This document shows, piece by piece, positions 5,392-42,597 of a stretch of 64,000 nt of DNA. The stretch is taken from assembly GCF_047723915.1 (NCBI RefSeq), contig NZ_JBDOBQ010000010.1:12720-76719 (forward strand), in the 5' to 3' direction. The position numbers were made by a program, and so were the translations under genes. Numbering within the stretch: position 1 is the stretch's first letter; each line of letters starts with the position of its first letter. This DNA is from Acetobacter sp. Lineage in GTDB: Bacteria; Pseudomonadota; Alphaproteobacteria; Acetobacterales; Acetobacteraceae. Under the pieces are notes generated by a model. The model was not told the origin of the DNA. It searched no databases and saw only the letters and a list, made by a program, of their open reading frames with translations.

Positions 5392-7473
5392 TTAATGGCG
5401 GGTGGCCAGAAGGCTGCCATCCGACTGGACGGTGGCCGTGAACTGCGCGCTCAGGATGGTTGTGGTCTCGGCCTCGGTAATAATGGCGGGGCCTGCGACA
5501 ACATCGCCCGGCACCAACTCCGCGCGTTCCACCACCTGGGCGGATACGAAAGACCGGCTGACGGAATCAAAGAGTTTGCGTGACACGCCCGAGGTGATCT
5601 GCCGTGTGGCACCCACCGGGGTTGCGGGCTGCGCCCGCTCCACCGGCGTGCTGACCCGCAGCGACCAGCTTACGATCTCGACCTCCGGCCCGACAATGGC
5701 GCGGCCGAAAAAGCGCGTATATTCCTTCATGAATTCGGCCCCGATCGCAGCGGTGTCGCCCGCGTGGAACACCTCGAATGGCAGGCGGACGGGAATATCC
5801 CAGCCCTGCCCGGCATAACGCATGAAGGCCGTGCATTCGACCGTGGTGGCCGCACTGCTTTCAATGGCCGAGACAAAGCCCAGGGCCTCGTCACGCATGG
5901 ACTCCAGCAGGGCGGCAACCCTGGGCTGCTCGAAGCGTGACAGTTCCACCCGGCCGCTGCGCACCGTCTCGTAGCCGAACGGGGCCAGCAGGAAGCCGAT
6001 GGCCGAGCCCACACCCGCACCCGGCGGCACGATAAAGCTGTCGATCCCCAGCTTTTCGCACAGGCGGGCCGCATGCAGCGGGCCGCCGCCACCAAAGGTG
6101 ATCATGGTGAAAGTGCTGATATCCTTGCCGCTTTCAATGGCATGCACGCGGGCGGCGTTGGACATGTTCTCGTCCACCACCTCGCACACGCCGTAAGCCG
6201 AAGCCTCGACCGAAAGGCCGATCTGCGCGCCAATGTCCTGATCCAGCGCATGGGACGCGGCAGGCACGGACAGCGCCACCTTGCCACCGGCAAAGTTGTC
6301 GGGGTCCAGCTTGCCCAGTACCAGATTGGCGTCCGTCACGGTGGGGTTGATACCGCCCCGCTGGTAGCAGGCAGGCCCGGGTTCGGATGCGGCACTTTTC
6401 GGCCCCACGCGGATCTGGCGCAGCGAATCCACACTGGCGATGGACCCGCCGCCCGCCCCGATTTCGACCATTTCCACCACGGGAATGGATATGACCATGC
6501 CGCTGCCCTTGCGGAACCGATAGGTACGCGCGACCTCGAAGCTCTTGGCGGTCTTGGGCACGTAGTCCTCGACAAGGCAGATCTTGGCGGTGGTGCCGCC
6601 CATGTCGAAGGACACGACATGCTCGCGCCCATGGCGGCGGGCCACGTCCTCGGCAAAGATCACCCCGCCCGCCGGACCCGATTCGACCAGCCGCACCGGA
6701 AATTCCGCCGCGTGTTCGAGCGAGATAATACCGCCGCCGGAATGGATCATGTAGACAGGGCAGCCCATGCCGCGCGCCGCCAGCGCCTTGACCAGCCTGT
6801 CGAGATACGCCTTGATGACAGGCTTGACGTAGGCATTGGCGCAGACGGTGTTGAAGCGTTCCAGTTCGCGGAACTGCGGCGCCACCTCGGAGGAGATGGA
6901 AATGGACACGTCGGGCAGCCGGGCCAGAATGGCGTCACGCACCAGGCGTTCATGCGCGCCGTTGGCATAGGCGTGAATAAACCCGATGGCGACGCTTTCG
7001 TACCCGCCTTCGGCCAGGCGGGTGATCAGCGCGTCCAGCGCCGCGCGGTCCACATCCAGCAGCACCTGACCCGCCGCATCCATGCGCTCGCGCACCACAA
7101 AGCGGTCCGCGCGGCTGATCAGGGCGGGGGGCAGGGTGATGTTCAGGTCATACTGTTCGAACCGGTTTTCGGTGCGCATTTCCAGCACATCGCGAAACCC
7201 CTCGGTGGTGACGAACGCGGTGCGCGCGCCACGCCGCTCGATCAGCGAATTGGTGGCCAGCGTGGTGCCATGCACCACAACCCCGATCTCGGCCAGCGCT
7301 ACGCCCGCATCGGCGCAGACCTGCTCGATTCCCTTGAGAATAGCCCGCTCGGGCGCTTCGTAATCCGTAAGAACCTTGGTGGAAACCAGCCGCCCGTCGA
7401 CCTTGAGCGCGACATCCGTAAAGGTGCCACCAATATCCACGCCAACACGACAGTCCTTGTGCCCCGACGCCAT
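5392..7473 (-). CDS. hyuA: Hydantoinase A / oxoprolinase family protein
   Basis: The CRVGVDIGGTFTDV N-terminus and ~690-aa length are typical of Hydantoinase_A. Start trimmed to ATG 7473 (MASGHKDCRVGVDIGG). Confidence 0.85.
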   Translation of the reverse strand: MASGHKDCRVGVDIGGTFTDVALKVDGRLVSTKVLTDYEAPERAILKGIEQVCADAGVALAEIGVVVHGTTLATNSLIERRGARTAFVTTEGFRDVLEMRTENRFEQYDLNITLPPALISRADRFVVRERMDAAGQVLLDVDRAALDALITRLAEGGYESVAIGFIHAYANGAHERLVRDAILARLPDVSISISSEVAPQFRELERFNTVCANAYVKPVIKAYLDRLVKALAARGMGCPVYMIHSGGGIISLEHAAEFPVRLVESGPAGGVIFAEDVARRHGREHVVSFDMGGTTAKICLVEDYVPKTAKSFEVARTYRFRKGSGMVISIPVVEMVEIGAGGGSIASVDSLRQIRVGPKSAASEPGPACYQRGGINPTVTDANLVLGKLDPDNFAGGKVALSVPAASHALDQDIGAQIGLSVEASAYGVCEVVDENMSNAARVHAIESGKDISTFTMITFGGGGPLHAARLCEKLGIDSFIVPPGAGVGSAIGFLLAPFGYETVRSGRVELSRFEQPRVAALLESMRDEALGFVSAIESSAATTVECTAFMRYAGQGWDIPVRLPFEVFHAGDTAAIGAEFMKEYTRFFGRAIVGPEVEIVSWSLRVSTPVERAQPATPVGATRQITSGVSRKLFDSVSRSFVSAQVVERAELVPGDVVAGPAIITEAETTTILSAQFTATVQSDGSLLATRH

Positions 7474-30074: not shown

Positions 30075-31100
30075 ATGAAAATAGACGCCCGCACCCTGCC
30101 CCGCGTCCTGGCCGACCCGGGTGCGTGGCGGGCGATCCTGCTGTACGGAGAGGATACGGGGCTTATTCGTGAACGCGCGCAGGACGCGGTGCGTAAAATT
30201 GCAGGCACAACGGACGACCCGTTCCGCATTGCCGTGCTGGACCGCGAAACCCATGACCGGCTGGAGGAAGAAGCCACGGCCCTCTCGCTCATGGGCGGGC
30301 GGCGTGTGGTGCGCGTGCGCGACGCGTCGGACAGCCAGCTCAAACCTCTTGAACACAGCCTGGCCCAGAACACCGACACCCTGCTTGTGCTCGAAGCCCC
30401 CGGCCTGGCCTCGCGCTCCAAGCTGCGCGCCTTTATGGAAGCGCGACCCGACTGCGCCTCCATCGGCTGTTACCCAGAGGAAGGCCGCAATCTGGAGGGC
30501 AGCGTGTCCAAAATGCTGGGCGCGCATCAGGTCCGCATAGACCCCGATGCACTGCACTGGCTGACCACCCGTCTGGGGGCCGACCGCGCCGCTGCCCGCA
30601 GCGAGGTCGAAAAACTGGCCCTTTACGCGGGCGATGGCGGCAGGCTTGATCTGGAAGACGTGCGTGCCTGCATTGGGGATGCCGGCAGCGTTTCGGTCGA
30701 AGACGCAGCCTTTGCCGCAACGGAAGGGCAGAGAGCGCAGGCCGATCTGGCGCTGGAACGCGCGCTGGCCGAAGGCACCAGCCCCATTGCCATTATCCGC
30801 GCTTTTCTGGCCCATCTGCACCGCCTGCGCCGGGTGCGCGCGGCCATGGCCACGGGGCTGAGCCGCACCGACGCCCTGAAAACCCTACGCCCGCCGGTGT
30901 TTTTCAAACGCACGGCAAGCTTTGGCCGCGCGCTGGAACTCTGGACCCTGCCCGCCTTAACGCGGGAAACCGCGGCGTGGCAGGCGCTGGAACTGGCCTG
31001 CAAACAGACCGGCGCGCCCGACACGCTGCTCTGCCGCCGTCAGGTTGCCATACTGAGTGCCCGGGCGGCGCAGACCGGCAGCAAAAACGCACGGGGCTGA
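30075..31100 (+). CDS. holA: DNA polymerase III delta subunit
   Basis: 341 aa. Begins ILLYGEDTGL... and sits after lptE in the conserved position. Confidence 0.85.
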   Translation: MKIDARTLPRVLADPGAWRAILLYGEDTGLIRERAQDAVRKIAGTTDDPFRIAVLDRETHDRLEEEATALSLMGGRRVVRVRDASDSQLKPLEHSLAQNTDTLLVLEAPGLASRSKLRAFMEARPDCASIGCYPEEGRNLEGSVSKMLGAHQVRIDPDALHWLTTRLGADRAAARSEVEKLALYAGDGGRLDLEDVRACIGDAGSVSVEDAAFAATEGQRAQADLALERALAEGTSPIAIIRAFLAHLHRLRRVRAAMATGLSRTDALKTLRPPVFFKRTASFGRALELWTLPALTRETAAWQALELACKQTGAPDTLLCRRQVAILSARAAQTGSKNARG

Positions 31101-31338
31101 ACGTACCGCCCCTTGGCCTTTGTCTCTCTCCCACGTCATCGGGCGGCAACTGCACATACCGGCTCCGGCCCCGCCAGGCGCGATTCTCCGGCCACGGTCG
31201 GTTCGCCGTGGCGACTACACCCCCGCTGCGGAAAAAGAACACGACATCGTACCCGGCGGCGGATCGCCAGGAGACTGGCAGCCCGCAACGGTTCGCCCCT
31301 TGCCGGGAGAGGGTGGTTTTTGTATAGAGAGTGCGTGT

Positions 31339-31658
31339 GTCCGCGTAGCTCAGCAGGATAGAGCACAGGATTCCTAGGTAAAATTGGGCACCATGTCAGG
31401 AAACGGCATGGTGAATCCGCTCAAAGTCGGGGAACGCTACGGCCGCAAGGCCTTGCCAATCCCGAGCCAAGCCGCCCTTGCGGGCGGAAGGTGTAGAGAC
31501 TGGACGGGCGGTGCCTAAAGACCTGCATGCAGGTCCATGGCAAAGGGACAGTCCAGCCCACAAACGTTCCCCCCGGCATGCCGGTGGTGGTAACGGCTGT
31601 GAAAACCGCAGTGGGATGAATCCTGGGGCCGTGGGTTCGAATCCCGCCGCGGACACCA
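31339..31658 (+). tRNA. tRNA-Arg(CCU) gene interrupted by a group I intron (exons 31339-31375 and 31619-31655, then encoded CCA)
   Basis: The joined exons fold into a canonical cloverleaf: acceptor GTCCGCG/CGCGGAC, D arm GCTC/GAGC, anticodon stem CAGGA/TCCTG with loop TTCCTAA, and T arm GTGGG-TTCGAAT-CCCGC. Confidence 0.9.
31376..31618 (+). ncRNA. Group I intron (IC3-like, bacterial tRNA-intron type), 243 nt, no ORF
   Basis: It is inserted after the anticodon U and ends in G. CCGAGCCAAGC (31462-31472) and GAAGGTGTAGAGACTGGACGG (31487-31507) match the Azoarcus/Agrobacterium tRNA-intron core as I remember it. Hairpins lie at 31389-31413 and 31520-31535. Confidence 0.85.
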
Positions 31659-31674
31659 CACATTTTTCATTCAT

Positions 31675-31711
31675 CTGGTTTTTTTGCGTTTTATTCCTGC
31701 AAAAAAACCAG
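31675..31711 (+). terminator. Bidirectional-type terminator hairpin after the tRNA
   Basis: CTGGTTTTTTTGC (31675-31687) and GCAAAAAAACCAG (31699-31711) are perfect 13-nt arms rich in T and A runs. Confidence 0.6.
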
Positions 31712-32132
31712 TCCTCCTTCCATTTTCCCAACACGCCATGACATGCACCCCTGTCGCGCCCCCCCTGTGCCGACAGGTGCATTGTATAGGGTTTAGCCCC
31801 AGGCTTTGGAGCGCCGTGCGCGCCTCCCTCCACCACCGGAAAAACTGTTGAAAAATATGCATCCGCGCCGTCTCTCACGACGGATGCGCCGACGGTGCAT
31901 GTCCTGTTTCACGGTGATTTCACGTACGCACTTCAATGATGAACGTACAACCCTGTACATCTGCAGCGCACCGTGGATATTCATGATGAGTGTATGAAGT
32001 ATTAATATATTGAATAAGTATGATTCATGTCCTGAATCAATAGTCATACGGCACAATATTATTTTTGTTGAAAAATTAAATTAATAAAACTTACTCTGTT
32101 CTCCATTCATTTCCTTCAATGGAGTCTCGCTG

Positions 32133-32378
32133 ATGGCGTCTATGCTCAGGTGTGCAAGCTGCACGTGTTCCACGTGCGCGGTCGCCTGCGAGGTCGTTTC
32201 TCTCCGGTTTGCACTGGACATGGTCCGGCGCGAACTCTCAGCGGACAGTCTGGCAAAACTGCTTGTTTATTTCGATGCATTGCATGACACGCACAAAATC
32301 CCGTTTTGCGATACACGCGCCATACTACGCGGGATCACCATCCCGGATTTTGTACCGCATATGGCGTGTCTCGAATAA
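32133..32378 (+). CDS. Hypothetical small protein (81 aa) with a Cys-rich N-terminus
   Basis: ORF in a lower-GC patch, with GGAG 11 nt upstream of the ATG. The N-terminus is MASMLRCASCTCSTCAVAC. No family recognised. Confidence 0.3.
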   Translation: MASMLRCASCTCSTCAVACEVVSLRFALDMVRRELSADSLAKLLVYFDALHDTHKIPFCDTRAILRGITIPDFVPHMACLE

Positions 32379-32513
32379 GCGGACCATATGTCCACACGCT
32401 GAATCGGCCCTATATGGGGCAGCCCGTGCCATGGTGCCCGAGCGTCCTGATAGCCCCCTGACAACGCCCTGATCCCCTGACTGCCCGCGTCCGGTTCACT
32501 GGCCAGACAATGC

Positions 32514-33737
32514 TCAGGCGGGTCCTGCGCGTTGGCGCAGCATGGTAAAAAACCCGACACAGGCTGCTGCAAAGCCAGCGGCAGCACCCACGCCGAGGGC
32601 CCAGCGCGGGCCGAACGTATCAGCCACCCAACCTACGATCGGCGCACCGACGGGGGTACCGCCCAGGGCGACACCCACCCGCAGCGCCAGCACGCGCCCA
32701 CGCATTTCGGGCGTGGTGGAAAGCTGCATGAGACTGCTGGAGGTGTTGGTAACAGTCAGCATGGCTACGCCGGTCATGGCCAGGGCAGCAGCAAAATACC
32801 AGTAGCCCGGCGCAAAAGCGGCCAGAACACAGCCAAGCCCGAAAATACCCGAACCTGTCACCAGCAGATCGAAACGCGGCTTCTCCCGCCCTGCCCCCAG
32901 AATGGCACCGGCAATCGTACCCACCGCCATGATAGCCGAAAGCACACCATAGCCCCATGCATCCGTATGAAAGACGCTGACCGCCATGGTGGAGATGAAA
33001 ATAGGAAAGTTCATGCCGAATGTCCCGATCAGGAACAGCATGATCAGGATCGCACGGAGGTCAGGTCGCACCCAGGCGTAACGTAAACCGGCGGTAAAGC
33101 TGCCCTTTGTTCTGCGCGCCCGGGCATGCTGGCGCAGGGTGCTGGTGCGCAGCGCCAGCAGGGAGAACAGCACCCCGATAAACGATGCCCCATTGATCAG
33201 AAACGCCCAGCCGGTGCCGATCCAGGCAATAACCATGCCCGAGACGGCAGGCCCGATCATGCGCGCGGCGTTGAATGAGGTGGAATTGAGCGCCACGGCA
33301 TTATGCAGGTCTTCGTCCCCCACCAGCGCGGCCACAAACACCTGACGCACCGGCGCGTCGAACGCGGCCGCGCTGCCGAACAGGAAAGCGAAGACATAGA
33401 CATGCCACAACCGCACCGCCCCGGTCAGTGTCAGCAGGCCAAGTGCCAGAGCCAGAACACCCATGGCCGCCTGGGTCAGCACAAGCAGGCGACGCTGGTT
33501 GAAATGATCGGCGGCAAAGCCTGTCCAGGGCAGCAGCAGCATCTGCGGTCCGAACTGCAACGCCATGACCACCCCCATGGCCGAAGCGTCATGATGGGTC
33601 AACTGGGTCAGGACCAGCCAGTCCTGCGCCGTGCGCTGCACCCATGTCCCGATATTCGAGACAAAGGCCCCCCCGGCCCAGACACGGTAATTGGCGTTCC
33701 GCAGCGAGCGGAAAACAGCGTTGGGGGAATACGTCAC
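32514..33737 (-). CDS. MFS transporter (EntS/MFS_3-like)
   Basis: 407 aa, polytopic. FRSLRNANYRVWAGGAFVSNIGTWVQRTAQDWLV is typical of this subfamily. The GTG start overlaps the upstream stop (GTGA). Confidence 0.8.
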   Translation of the reverse strand: MTYSPNAVFRSLRNANYRVWAGGAFVSNIGTWVQRTAQDWLVLTQLTHHDASAMGVVMALQFGPQMLLLPWTGFAADHFNQRRLLVLTQAAMGVLALALGLLTLTGAVRLWHVYVFAFLFGSAAAFDAPVRQVFVAALVGDEDLHNAVALNSTSFNAARMIGPAVSGMVIAWIGTGWAFLINGASFIGVLFSLLALRTSTLRQHARARRTKGSFTAGLRYAWVRPDLRAILIMLFLIGTFGMNFPIFISTMAVSVFHTDAWGYGVLSAIMAVGTIAGAILGAGREKPRFDLLVTGSGIFGLGCVLAAFAPGYWYFAAALAMTGVAMLTVTNTSSSLMQLSTTPEMRGRVLALRVGVALGGTPVGAPIVGWVADTFGPRWALGVGAAAGFAAACVGFFTMLRQRAGPA

Positions 33738-41718: not shown

Positions 41719-42597
41719 TTACCCGCCCTGCAGGACCGCTTTCAATGTCGCGCCCAGCAGGGAGGGGTCGGGGGCGATATGCACCCCGGCACCGCGCAGC
41801 GCCTCGATCTTGGCGGCGGCCGTGTCATCCCCGCCGGAGACGACCGCGCCCGCATGGCCCATGCGCCGCCCCGGCGGTGCGCTAAGCCCCGCCACCAGCC
41901 CCACGACGGGCTTGGTCGTACGGCTGTCGCGCAGGAAGCGGGCTGCCTCGCATTCCGACTGACCGCCGATTTCCCCGATCATGATAATGGAGTCGGTCTG
42001 CGGGTCGGCCAGGAACATCTCCAGCACATCAATGAAATCCAGCCCCTTGATGGGGTCCCCGCCTATGCCGACACTGGTGCTCTGGCCCAGCCCCAGGGCC
42101 GATGTCTGGGCCACGGCCTCGTACGTCAGGGTGCCCGAGCGCGAGACAATGCCCACCCGCCCCGGCCTGTGAATGGGGGCTGGCATGATGCCGATCTTGC
42201 ATTGCCCGGGCGTGATGACCCCCGGACAGTTCGGCCCCACCAGCCGGCTGGACGACCGGTCCAGCGCCTTGCGCACACGCAGCATGTCCAGCACGGGAAT
42301 GCCCTCTGTAATGCACACGATCAGCGGCACCTCCGCCCCGATCGCCTCCAGTATGGCATCGGCCGCGCCCACGGGGGGCACGTAGATCACGCTCGCCGTC
42401 GCGCCCGTGGCGGCCACGGCCTGGGCCATGGTGTCGAACACCGGCAGGTCCAGATGCGTGCTGCCACCCTTGCCCGGGGTTACGCCGCCTACCATGCGTG
42501 TGCCGCAGGCAATGGCCTGCTGGGCATGGAAGGTACCCTGCGCACCGGTAAAGCCCTGTGTCAGCACGCGTGTTTCATGGTTGACCAGAATAGCCAT
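41719..42597 (-). CDS. sucD: Succinate--CoA ligase alpha subunit
   Basis: Contains QGFTG..GTFH and SRSGTLTYE, with the MGHAGA phosphohistidine loop. Confidence 0.9.

Follow-up and report, generated by a model that had tools for sequence, protein, structure and literature searches.

The stretch of DNA analyzed here (64,000 nucleotides, hereafter the window) very probably carries, at positions 31339 to 31658 of the forward strand, a tRNA-Arg(CCU) gene of an Acetobacter lineage that is interrupted between U36 and A37 by a 243-nt group I intron of subgroup IC3, class Arg.5Ug, without an open reading frame (ORF). We put the probability of this reading, which includes splicing as proposed below and inheritance of the intron as a neutral passenger, at roughly 0.93. 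The intron is a member of a known family, already noted in acetic acid bacteria, and is an ordinary feature that annotation missed.

The gene was delimited with ARAGORN in intron mode (ARAGORN -i), which called a tRNA-Arg(cct) at 31339 to 31658 with a 243-nt intron at 31376 to 31618 and junctions reading ttcct/aggtaa...gggatg/aatcc. Two forward-strand exons of 37 nt each (31339-31375 and 31619-31655) join into a clean 74-nt tRNA-Arg(CCU) cloverleaf, which is followed by an encoded CCA. When the exons were joined in silico across the predicted ligated junction (...GGAUUCCU joined to AAUCCUGG...), the same 77-nt tRNA was obtained; it folds into a regular cloverleaf with UUCCUAA as its anticodon loop, and ARAGORN called tRNA-Arg(cct) from both the spliced and the unspliced form. 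Exon coordinates, cloverleaf, and the loop (TTCCTAA) had been given in a preliminary description of this DNA and proved exact to the base, both in ARAGORN intron mode and on reading the sequence. The features of the locus are as follows.

31300 to 31328, forward strand: promoter-like element, with -35 TTGCCG (31300-31305), a 17-nt spacer, and -10 TATAGA (31323-31328).
31339 to 31375, forward strand: tRNA-Arg(CCU) exon 1 (ARAGORN -i), comprising the acceptor 5' strand, D arm, and anticodon stem 5' strand.
31376 to 31618, forward strand: group I intron, subgroup IC3, class Arg.5Ug, 243 nt, without an ORF.
31383 to 31388, forward strand: internal guide sequence, of which GGG (31386-31388) forms P1 with the exon 1 CCU.
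31389 to 31413, forward strand: P2 hairpin of 9 bp with a GGAAAC loop (GAAA at 31400-31403).
31417 to 31422, forward strand: P3 5' strand, CCGCUC (partner at 31506-31511).
31427 to 31465, forward strand: P4 (31427-31432 with 31460-31465) around J4/5 AA, P5 (31436-31437 with 31455-31456), and P5a (31441-31452, GCAA loop).
31466 to 31492, forward strand: P6 (GCC/GGU) and the P6a hairpin (31472-31487).
31496 to 31501, forward strand: P7 5' strand, G(A)GACU, followed by J7/3 GGAC (31502-31505).
31506 to 31511, forward strand: P3 3' strand, GGGCGG, from pair counting.
31512 to 31542, forward strand: P8 (UGCC/GGCA) and the palindromic hairpin P8a (31520-31535).
31543 to 31554, forward strand: J8/7 AAGGGAC (31543-31549) and P7 3' strand AGUCC (31550-31554), nearly invariant.
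31558 to 31618, forward strand: P9 domain, comprising the outer helix CCAC/GUGG (31558-31561 with 31611-31614), P9a, P9b, and the terminal GAUG.
31567 to 31593, forward strand: P9a, a variable, U-bulged hairpin of 27 nt, the longest in the family sample.
31597 to 31608, forward strand: P9b, CUGU-GAAA-ACCG, a 4-bp stem presenting the L9 GAAA tetraloop.
31619 to 31658, forward strand: tRNA-Arg(CCU) exon 2 (ARAGORN -i and alignment), comprising A37 and A38, the anticodon stem 3' strand, variable loop, T arm, acceptor 3' strand, discriminator A, and the encoded CCA.
31675 to 31711, no strand assigned: A/T-rich inverted repeat (CTGGTTTTTTTGC ... GCAAAAAAACCAG), perfect over 13 bp, 17 nt after the tRNA, and without a T tail.

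Exon 1, which is near-identical across the 16 homologues of the alignment, ends in the loop residues U32, U33, C34, C35, and U36, the last of which (31375) is nucleotide -1 of the 5' splice site. With the one extra D-loop residue taken into account in canonical numbering, the intron sits between U36 and A37, directly 3' of the anticodon. Read from the sequence, the exons carry A20, C35, and the discriminator A73, which we take to be bacterial arginine identity elements. Archaeal and eukaryotic tRNA introns of the protein-spliced kind are short, lie canonically at 37/38, have a bulge-helix-bulge motif on their flanks, and are cut by a splicing endonuclease; an intron of this kind was ruled out by the length of 243 nt, the 36/37 site, the group I core, and the bacterial host. 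The insertion site (UUCCU/...G/AA) is the same in all 15 homologues and equals position 5 of Williams (2020), with U-1 and omega-G.

An IC3 fold was transferred by homology from the Azoarcus intron to that of the window and written onto a MAFFT alignment of 16 sequences. Pairs were counted explicitly, since the pre-tRNA has more than 300 positions and lies beyond the size suggested for calibrating a covariance model; the variable P9a, which MAFFT did not align reliably, was for that reason checked by folding each sequence separately. Over 69 pairs in the 16 sequences, 94.6% of cells were paired, compared with 31 to 45% when the 3' partners were slid by 1 to 3 columns. Both sides had changed in 29 pairs (112 cells), the covariation score was 0.288 versus 0.04 to 0.09 in the slid controls, and 0 of 500 shuffles reached the observed pairing or covariation. 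Covariation was seen in P2, P3, P5a, P6a, P8, P8a, and P9b; in the peripheral helices, pairing has been maintained by compensatory change, a sign of selection on the fold. P1, P4, P5, P6, P7, and the P9 outer helix are invariant and fully paired in the 16 sequences, so it is conservation and not covariation that supports them, together with Azoarcus homology in the case of the core. Comparison of the 16 homologous pre-tRNAs supports a complete P1-P10 fold of subgroup IC3.

At the 5' splice site, all three P1 pairs are present in 16 of 16 sequences, including the wobble U31375.G31386, and the intron ends in G in all 16 (omega-G, G31618), so that both the U.G pairing with GGG at 31386-31388 and the terminal G proposed earlier hold throughout the family sample. 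For a candidate P10, AUU (31383-31385) with the exon 2 AAU, pairing was counted in 13 to 16 of the 16, and the whole 3-bp helix could form in 13. P2 has both-sided changes in eight of its nine pairs around an invariant GGAAAC loop; P3 is 100% paired, with one pair changed from C-G to U-A in five sequences; P4 and P5 are 100% paired; and covariation affects all four pairs of P5a and five of the six in P6a. P7 does not vary among the 16 sequences, and all of its pairs form, giving a pseudoknot across P3. It is identical in sequence to that of an Azoarcus-type tRNA-Ile intron (L004) and contains the invariant predicted guanosine-binding pair, G31498:C31553; a G-binding base triple or pocket, G129-C176, is described in PMC13168695. 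Both-sided changes were counted in two of four pairs in P8 and five of six in P8a. P9a measures 8 to 27 nt and forms a hairpin in 13 of the 16 sequences, being too short to fold in three. Covariation covers three of the four P9b pairs, and the lone unpaired cell, in the second pair, is the window's own U31598.C31607 (CUGU/ACCG). This mismatch and the long, U-bulged P9a are specific to the window copy, and each might make folding less efficient. GAAA is found in both L2 and L9, and insertions and deletions among the homologues lie within hairpin loops.

The preliminary description had also singled out a 9-bp hairpin (31389-31413) and a palindromic one (31520-31535), which are P2 and P8a, both covarying, and two core motifs, CCGAGCCAAGC at 31462 and GAAGGTGTAGAGACTGGACGG at 31487, each of which occurs once in the 64-kb window. 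Its suggestion of kinship with the Azoarcus tRNA-Ile and Agrobacterium tRNA-Arg introns is borne out by the 15 homologues, the IC3 covariation, intron-aware detection, and an RF00028 alignment that spans the full model but scores below threshold.

Assignment to IC3 follows from a U.G pair in P1, omega-G, a P3-P8/P4-P6 core with the P3/P7 pseudoknot, and a P7 G-C next to the bulge with conserved J6/7 and J8/7. The sequence used for the Azoarcus tRNA-Ile intron was cross-checked against the Azoarcus-type tRNA-Ile intron L004 (Polynucleobacter) and the G-binding pair in PMC13168695. The window intron shares with that of Azoarcus the subgroup, insertion 3' of the anticodon, P4, P6, GAAA on L2 and L9, and a near-identical J6/7-P7-J7/3 and J8/7 (GGUGUAGAGACU(A/G)GACGG and AAGG.A.AGUCCAG). 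The Azoarcus intron differs in its host tRNA, its length (205 nt), and its simple P9 hairpin, whereas P9 of the window intron has three parts (outer helix, P9a, and P9b); next to J7/3 in P7 the window intron has a canonical G-C where Azoarcus has A.C, and the P5 receptor motif also differs. The tRNA-Leu(UAA) intron has the same IC3 core but lies in a different tRNA and is inserted at U34/A35, two positions upstream.

Within IC3, the host tRNA-Arg(CCU), the 36/37 insertion, full-length homology, the alphaproteobacterial host, and a compact form without a homing endonuclease ORF place the intron in Arg.5Ug, which is one of the four classical IC3 tRNA intron types; together these types make up 3,453 of 5,292 introns mapped in about 80,000 genomes (Williams, 2020). 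With other alphaproteobacterial Arg.5Ug introns it has in common the host gene, the site after nucleotide 36, U(-1), omega-G, the internal guide sequence TGGGC, the IC3 core, and the lack of an ORF. Members of the class measure 222 to 252 nt, and the window intron aligns over its full length with those of Rhodobacter, Mesorhizobium, Methylorubrum, Xanthobacter, Skermanella, and Ca. Tokpelaia, differing from other members only in peripheral hairpins (P9a, at 27 nt the longest sampled, and the U.C in P9b).

From this fold and its relatives we infer that the window copy is spliced, by a two-step guanosine-initiated transesterification. The gene would be transcribed from its own promoter, and the intron would fold into its P3-P9 core while the guide GGG pairs with the CCU at the end of exon 1 to form P1, placing the U.G wobble at the splice site. 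Free guanosine, held in the P7 pocket at G31498:C31553, would then attack after U31375; the terminal G31618 would take the same pocket, with exon 2 probably aligned by the exon-exon anticodon stem and the short P10 (AUU/AAU), and the freed 3'-OH of U36 would join A37. RNase P and 3' trimming would yield the mature 77-nt tRNA, which is expected to read AGG codons.

The proposed chemistry, with its G pocket and exon alignment, would proceed autonomously. It is unlikely, in our view, that this is a true group I intron for which "self-splicing" is a misnomer because a host protein or RNA chaperone is needed in vivo. P9b is weakened in the window copy, and the P5 internal loop is unlike the canonical 11-nt tetraloop receptor of Azoarcus, but GAAA in both L2 and L9 would suit the intramolecular tetraloop docking that stabilizes IC3 introns without protein. 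Among relatives, the Agrobacterium tRNA-Arg member is also reported to self-splice. Although reviews describe many group I introns as dependent on proteins in vivo (PMC7717549, discussion; PMC3984707), the family member BbgpI in the tRNA-Arg of Bartonella bacilliformis (PMC7717549) and the compact Azoarcus IC3 intron (PMC13168695) self-splice in vitro.

Relatives were sampled in two ways. For the first, the J6/7-P7-J7/3 block (AAGGTGTAGAGACTNGACGG) was scanned in one genome per species and found at at least 120 loci, whose taxon counts describe a sample and not a census; the matches listed came from Alpha-, Beta-, and Gammaproteobacteria, Acidobacteria, Nitrospirae, Chloroflexi, Bacteroidetes, and others. 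Intron-containing tRNA genes (ARAGORN -i) accounted for 105 of 121 motif-centered segments among the matches listed, with tRNA-Leu(UAA) the commonest host (50 calls), 13 of CAU anticodon, six tRNA-Arg(CCU), and four "His(atg)." On inspection of the junctions, all four tRNA-His(atg) calls proved to be tRNA-Arg(CCU) genes whose intron had been placed three nucleotides off, and the Phe and Ser calls were put down to a similar misplacement by a few nucleotides. The tRNA-Arg cases with a named taxon among the matches listed were all alphaproteobacterial (Rhodobacter, Methylorubrum, Xanthobacter, two Mesorhizobium, Skermanella, Ca. Tokpelaia, and an Acetobacteraceae MAG); two more came from Proteobacteria-labelled MAGs. 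By blastn, 15 independent tRNA-Arg(CCU) homologues were 72 to 85% identical to the window's pre-tRNA over the full 320 nt, the nearest pre-tRNA being that of Acetobacter sp. L127 (85%) and the others lying at 72 to 78%.

The second sampling was independent of the intron sequence, as holA neighborhoods were fetched via holA orthologues. In the window, the tRNA is preceded by leuS, lptE, and holA (30075-31100) and followed, on the opposite strand, by a gene for an MFS transporter (32514-33737). The holA product occurs in GCA_047721985.1, GCA_047724815.1, and several SRA assemblies, and its nearest named homologues are those of Acetobacter species (75 to 83% identity), which places the host in the Acetobacter lineage of the Acetobacteraceae. 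The arrangement leuS-lptE-holA followed by a split tRNA-Arg(CCU) was found in the window and in an Acetobacter sp., A. pomorum, Gluconacetobacter diazotrophicus, Komagataeibacter xylinus, Lichenicoccus, and Rhizosaccharibacter, so that surveying the orthologous locus in related genomes, a check named in the preliminary description, placed the split gene in the same slot in six further Acetobacteraceae, with introns of 226 to 252 nt. The holA slot was without any tRNA in Gluconobacter, Asaia, Acidomonas, Kozakia, and A. nitrogenifigens, and no intron-less allele was found at this slot among the 12 Acetobacteraceae lineages examined.

These data bear on whether the intron could be a recent horizontal arrival in the window genome, which we consider quite improbable. 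Paquin, Heinfling, and Shub reportedly surveyed the intron in alpha-purple bacteria in 1999 and are said to have argued for sporadic distribution and horizontal transmission. Beyond L127 (85%), the introns do not rank in identity as the holA genes do, with A. pomorum, Ga. diazotrophicus, and Mesorhizobium all at about 77 to 78%, and Granulibacter apparently lacks the intron (PMC4596401). Against a recent arrival, the same gene, site, and holA-downstream slot recur in seven Acetobacteraceae lineages, the closest relative of the intron is in the closest Acetobacter genome, and neither a homing endonuclease ORF nor any Arg-type copy on plasmids or phages was found (the plasmid matches were of Leu type, and the only phage match was a 68% core match in Gordonia phage Daredevil). 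The lack of a homing endonuclease and the shared slot in several genera point to a vertically inherited, essentially neutral passenger and not to an active mobile element.

The Leu-type plasmid matches form an observation of their own. A distant blastn search of PLSDB with the pre-tRNA matched 1,265 plasmids, 921 of them conjugative, at about 84% over the intron core, in hosts including Escherichia, Klebsiella, Salmonella, and Acinetobacter. In pCTX-M3 and in a Klebsiella IncL/M plasmid, the match is flanked on one side by a gene for a tmrB-like ATPase, itself adjacent to aac(3)-IId/IS26, and on the other by small hypothetical ORFs close to ISCfr1. The plasmid locus is a complete 299-nt tRNA-Leu(UAA) gene with an IC3 intron between U34 and A35, and it is 95% identical to the chromosomal copy of one Bradyrhizobiaceae genome, with which homology runs about 170 nt upstream of the tRNA-Leu, and 93% identical to a copy in Novosphingobium. 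The split tRNA-Leu(UAA) was present in 636 of 5,426 complete Escherichia coli genomes (12%) at ≥99% identity, with no annotated feature at the locus among the matches listed, and among the papers listed in full-text literature searches none linked group I introns to tmrB/aacC2 or IS26. The split tRNA-Leu, which lies unannotated beside aac(3)-IId/tmrB on more than 1,200 resistance plasmids, could mark the origin of that resistance module and would mean that clinical Enterobacteriaceae carry a group I ribozyme; it is a more interesting lead than the split tRNA-Arg.

At the tRNA-Arg locus itself, a promoter-like element ends 10 nt before tRNA position 1. A simple sigma-70 scan did not call it, but TTG and TA.A are kept at the same spacing upstream of the Acetobacter, Gluconacetobacter, and Komagataeibacter orthologues, and TTGCCG-N17-TATAGA probably functions as a promoter. 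The inverted repeat at 31675-31711 was not called by a terminator scan and is a possible transcription stop signal. The window pre-tRNA is 100% identical in a second assembly (L121 and L122); the two assemblies are independent, so the peculiarities of this copy are not assembly errors.

It is highly improbable that the intron is a decayed, splicing-defective relic in a tRNA pseudogene, with AGG read by tRNA-Arg(UCU) or another CCU copy: the P9b U.C unique to the window sequence, the enlarged P9a, and a low RF00028 score would fit such decay, but the catalytic core, the nucleotides at the two splice sites, and the two exons are intact and match other members exactly, the peripheral helices show compensatory changes, the promoter-like element is kept, two assemblies agree, and a single mismatch in a peripheral stem of 4 bp can be tolerated in a family whose other members show unpaired cells in P2, P5a, P6a, and P8a. 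There is, in our estimate, only a very slight chance that the intron is kept across Acetobacteraceae because the efficiency of its splicing controls how much tRNA-Arg(CCU) is made, and hence how AGG is decoded, as GTP, Mg2+, temperature, or acid stress vary, with the enlarged P9a and mismatched P9b tuning the candidate gate; conservation in a fixed slot is equally expected of a neutral passenger that is hard to lose.

The earlier expectation that standard annotation would miss this tRNA was borne out. ARAGORN with default settings found no tRNA in the whole 64-kb window, and Rfam at gathering thresholds gave no hit there. A permissive local search with RF00028 scored 23.7 bits versus a gathering score of 50 (E value, 7e-4; all 253 model positions; 31364-31568). 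Elsewhere in the group, the A. pomorum orthologue (62.2 bits) and the tRNA-Ile intron L004 (54.5 bits) lie above the gathering score, which 8 of 10 family loci miss and which is an operational criterion, not a biological one. Williams (2020) used 12 RF00028 seed sequences, none of them bacterial, with cutoffs of 18 to 20 bits. Other low-scoring local Rfam matches (miRNA models, mascRNA, and a tmRNA fragment) were rejected as arising from the downstream inverted repeat, which accounts for the spurious miRNA-model matches, and from the tRNA T arm. With nhmmer and a profile of the 16 homologues (the window's own sequence among them), the sole match in the window was this locus (E value, 3e-85), well outside what chance would give, and the local fold z-score was -2.9. 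In the public gene calls for the contig, the interval from 31100 to 32133 is empty. No Pfam match was obtained for the mechanical ORFs that overlap this tRNA, and they were rejected as coding.

The preliminary description knew of no such intron in acetic acid bacteria, and here it was mistaken. The tRNA-Arg intron was reportedly first found in Agrobacterium tumefaciens by Reinhold-Hurek and Shub in 1992. In acetic acid bacteria, Kawai et al. (2015; PMC4596401) reported a split tRNA-Arg in Asaia bogorensis, Acetobacter pasteurianus, Gluconobacter oxydans, Komagataeibacter medellinensis, and Gluconacetobacter diazotrophicus but not in Granulibacter. A claim of novelty fails because the intron is a classical Arg.5Ug intron and a split tRNA-Arg had already been reported in these five genomes. 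Theirs is the same phenomenon in the same family, Acetobacteraceae, and the A. pomorum, Ga. diazotrophicus, and K. xylinus loci are syntenic orthologues of the window locus; the window genome, GCA_047721985.1, belongs to a different organism of the Acetobacter lineage, and PMC4596401 gives a table footnote without coordinates, structure, or splice sites.

The practical value of the finding is an annotation fix, and it opens no biological question. Where the literature offers a table footnote only, base-level coordinates and a covariation-supported fold are now given for the acetic-acid-bacterial copies. As with BbgpI, the window tRNA stays unannotated unless the intron is removed, and because default tRNA finders and Rfam thresholds skip the gene, the genome would seem to lack tRNA-Arg(CCU), as was first the case with Bartonella bacilliformis.

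Scanning genome contigs for a 20-nt block of the IC3 group I intron core (AAGGTGTAGAGACTNGACGG) returned at least 120 loci (L001 to L120). Among the matches listed, the block lay within intron-split tRNA genes far beyond Proteobacteria and Cyanobacteria, with hosts in Acidobacteria, Nitrospirae, Chloroflexi, Bacteroidetes, and Gemmatimonadales, as well as Ca. Saccharibacteria (L063), Tsukamurella (L099), Vibrio agarilyticus (L066), and a Bacilli MAG (L103). Many host tRNAs were assigned by ARAGORN among these matches (Thr, Ser, Phe, Gly, Asn, and others); several of its assignments were rejected as artefacts of a misplaced intron.

A complete tRNA-Leu(UAA) gene, with an IC3 group I intron between U34 and A35, was found adjoining tmrB/aac(3)-IId/IS26 on resistance plasmids, and is not annotated in their records:

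L135, 2927-3225 (pCTX-M3, NC_004464.2 61823-62121): split tRNA-Leu(UAA)
L136, segment of K. pneumoniae p6Inc: split tRNA-Leu(UAA)

In PLSDB, 1,265 plasmids matched, and the split gene was carried by 636 of 5,426 complete E. coli genomes. With 95% identity between the plasmid gene and a chromosomal copy from Bradyrhizobiaceae (L024), the sequence comparison hints at an alphaproteobacterial source for the widespread tmrB/aac(3)-IId resistance module. Full-text literature searches found no published report of a split tRNA-Leu(UAA) beside tmrB/aac(3)-IId/IS26.

Further intron-split tRNA loci came from two MAGs:

L008 (Nitrospirae MAG VBOF01000190.1), segment called as tRNA-Met(cat), 591 nt: CAU-anticodon tRNA with an intron of ~515 nt
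L013 (Proteobacteria MAG JAFEFH010000001.1), 5652-5671 (+) and 6129-6148 (-): two identical intron-split tRNA-Leu(UAA) genes, in inverted orientation, ~0.5 kb apart

The L008 intron exceeds its relatives in length by ~300 nt; the extra sequence, located near the intron 5′ end and ahead of the catalytic core, is possibly an ORF for a homing endonuclease or what remains of one.

Out of the phage records searched, only Gordonia phage Daredevil (NC_048021.1) resembled the window intron core (68% similarity over ~150 nt). The matching stretch (41896-42050) is unannotated and possibly represents a phage-borne group I intron from the same subgroup.

Within the window intron, the P9b stem (CUGU-GAAA-ACCG, 31597-31608) contains a U.C mismatch seen in 0/15 other family members. 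The mismatch is real, since two independent assemblies (L121 and L122) share the P9b sequence. Downstream, the ~850 nt separating the tRNA from the MFS transporter gene (31659-32513) contain no recognisable gene. The following features lie there:

31675-31711: perfect 13-bp A/T-rich inverted repeat (CTGGTTTTTTTGC-11 nt-GCAAAAAAACCAG), shortly past the tRNA
32133-32378: 81-aa ORF called in the public record

The inverted repeat lacks a T tail, was not called in a terminator scan, and gave spurious low-score matches to miRNA models in Rfam. The 81-aa ORF had no match in Pfam.

Four short metagenomic contigs with the same holA, the gene directly upstream of the split tRNA (L123 to L126, Logan SRA assemblies), stop 26 or 99 nt into the pre-tRNA. 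The breaks probably arise because co-occurring acetic acid bacteria share an identical tRNA exon, at which the assembly graph branches. Split tRNA loci such as the window tRNA-Arg(CCU) will frequently be lost at contig ends.
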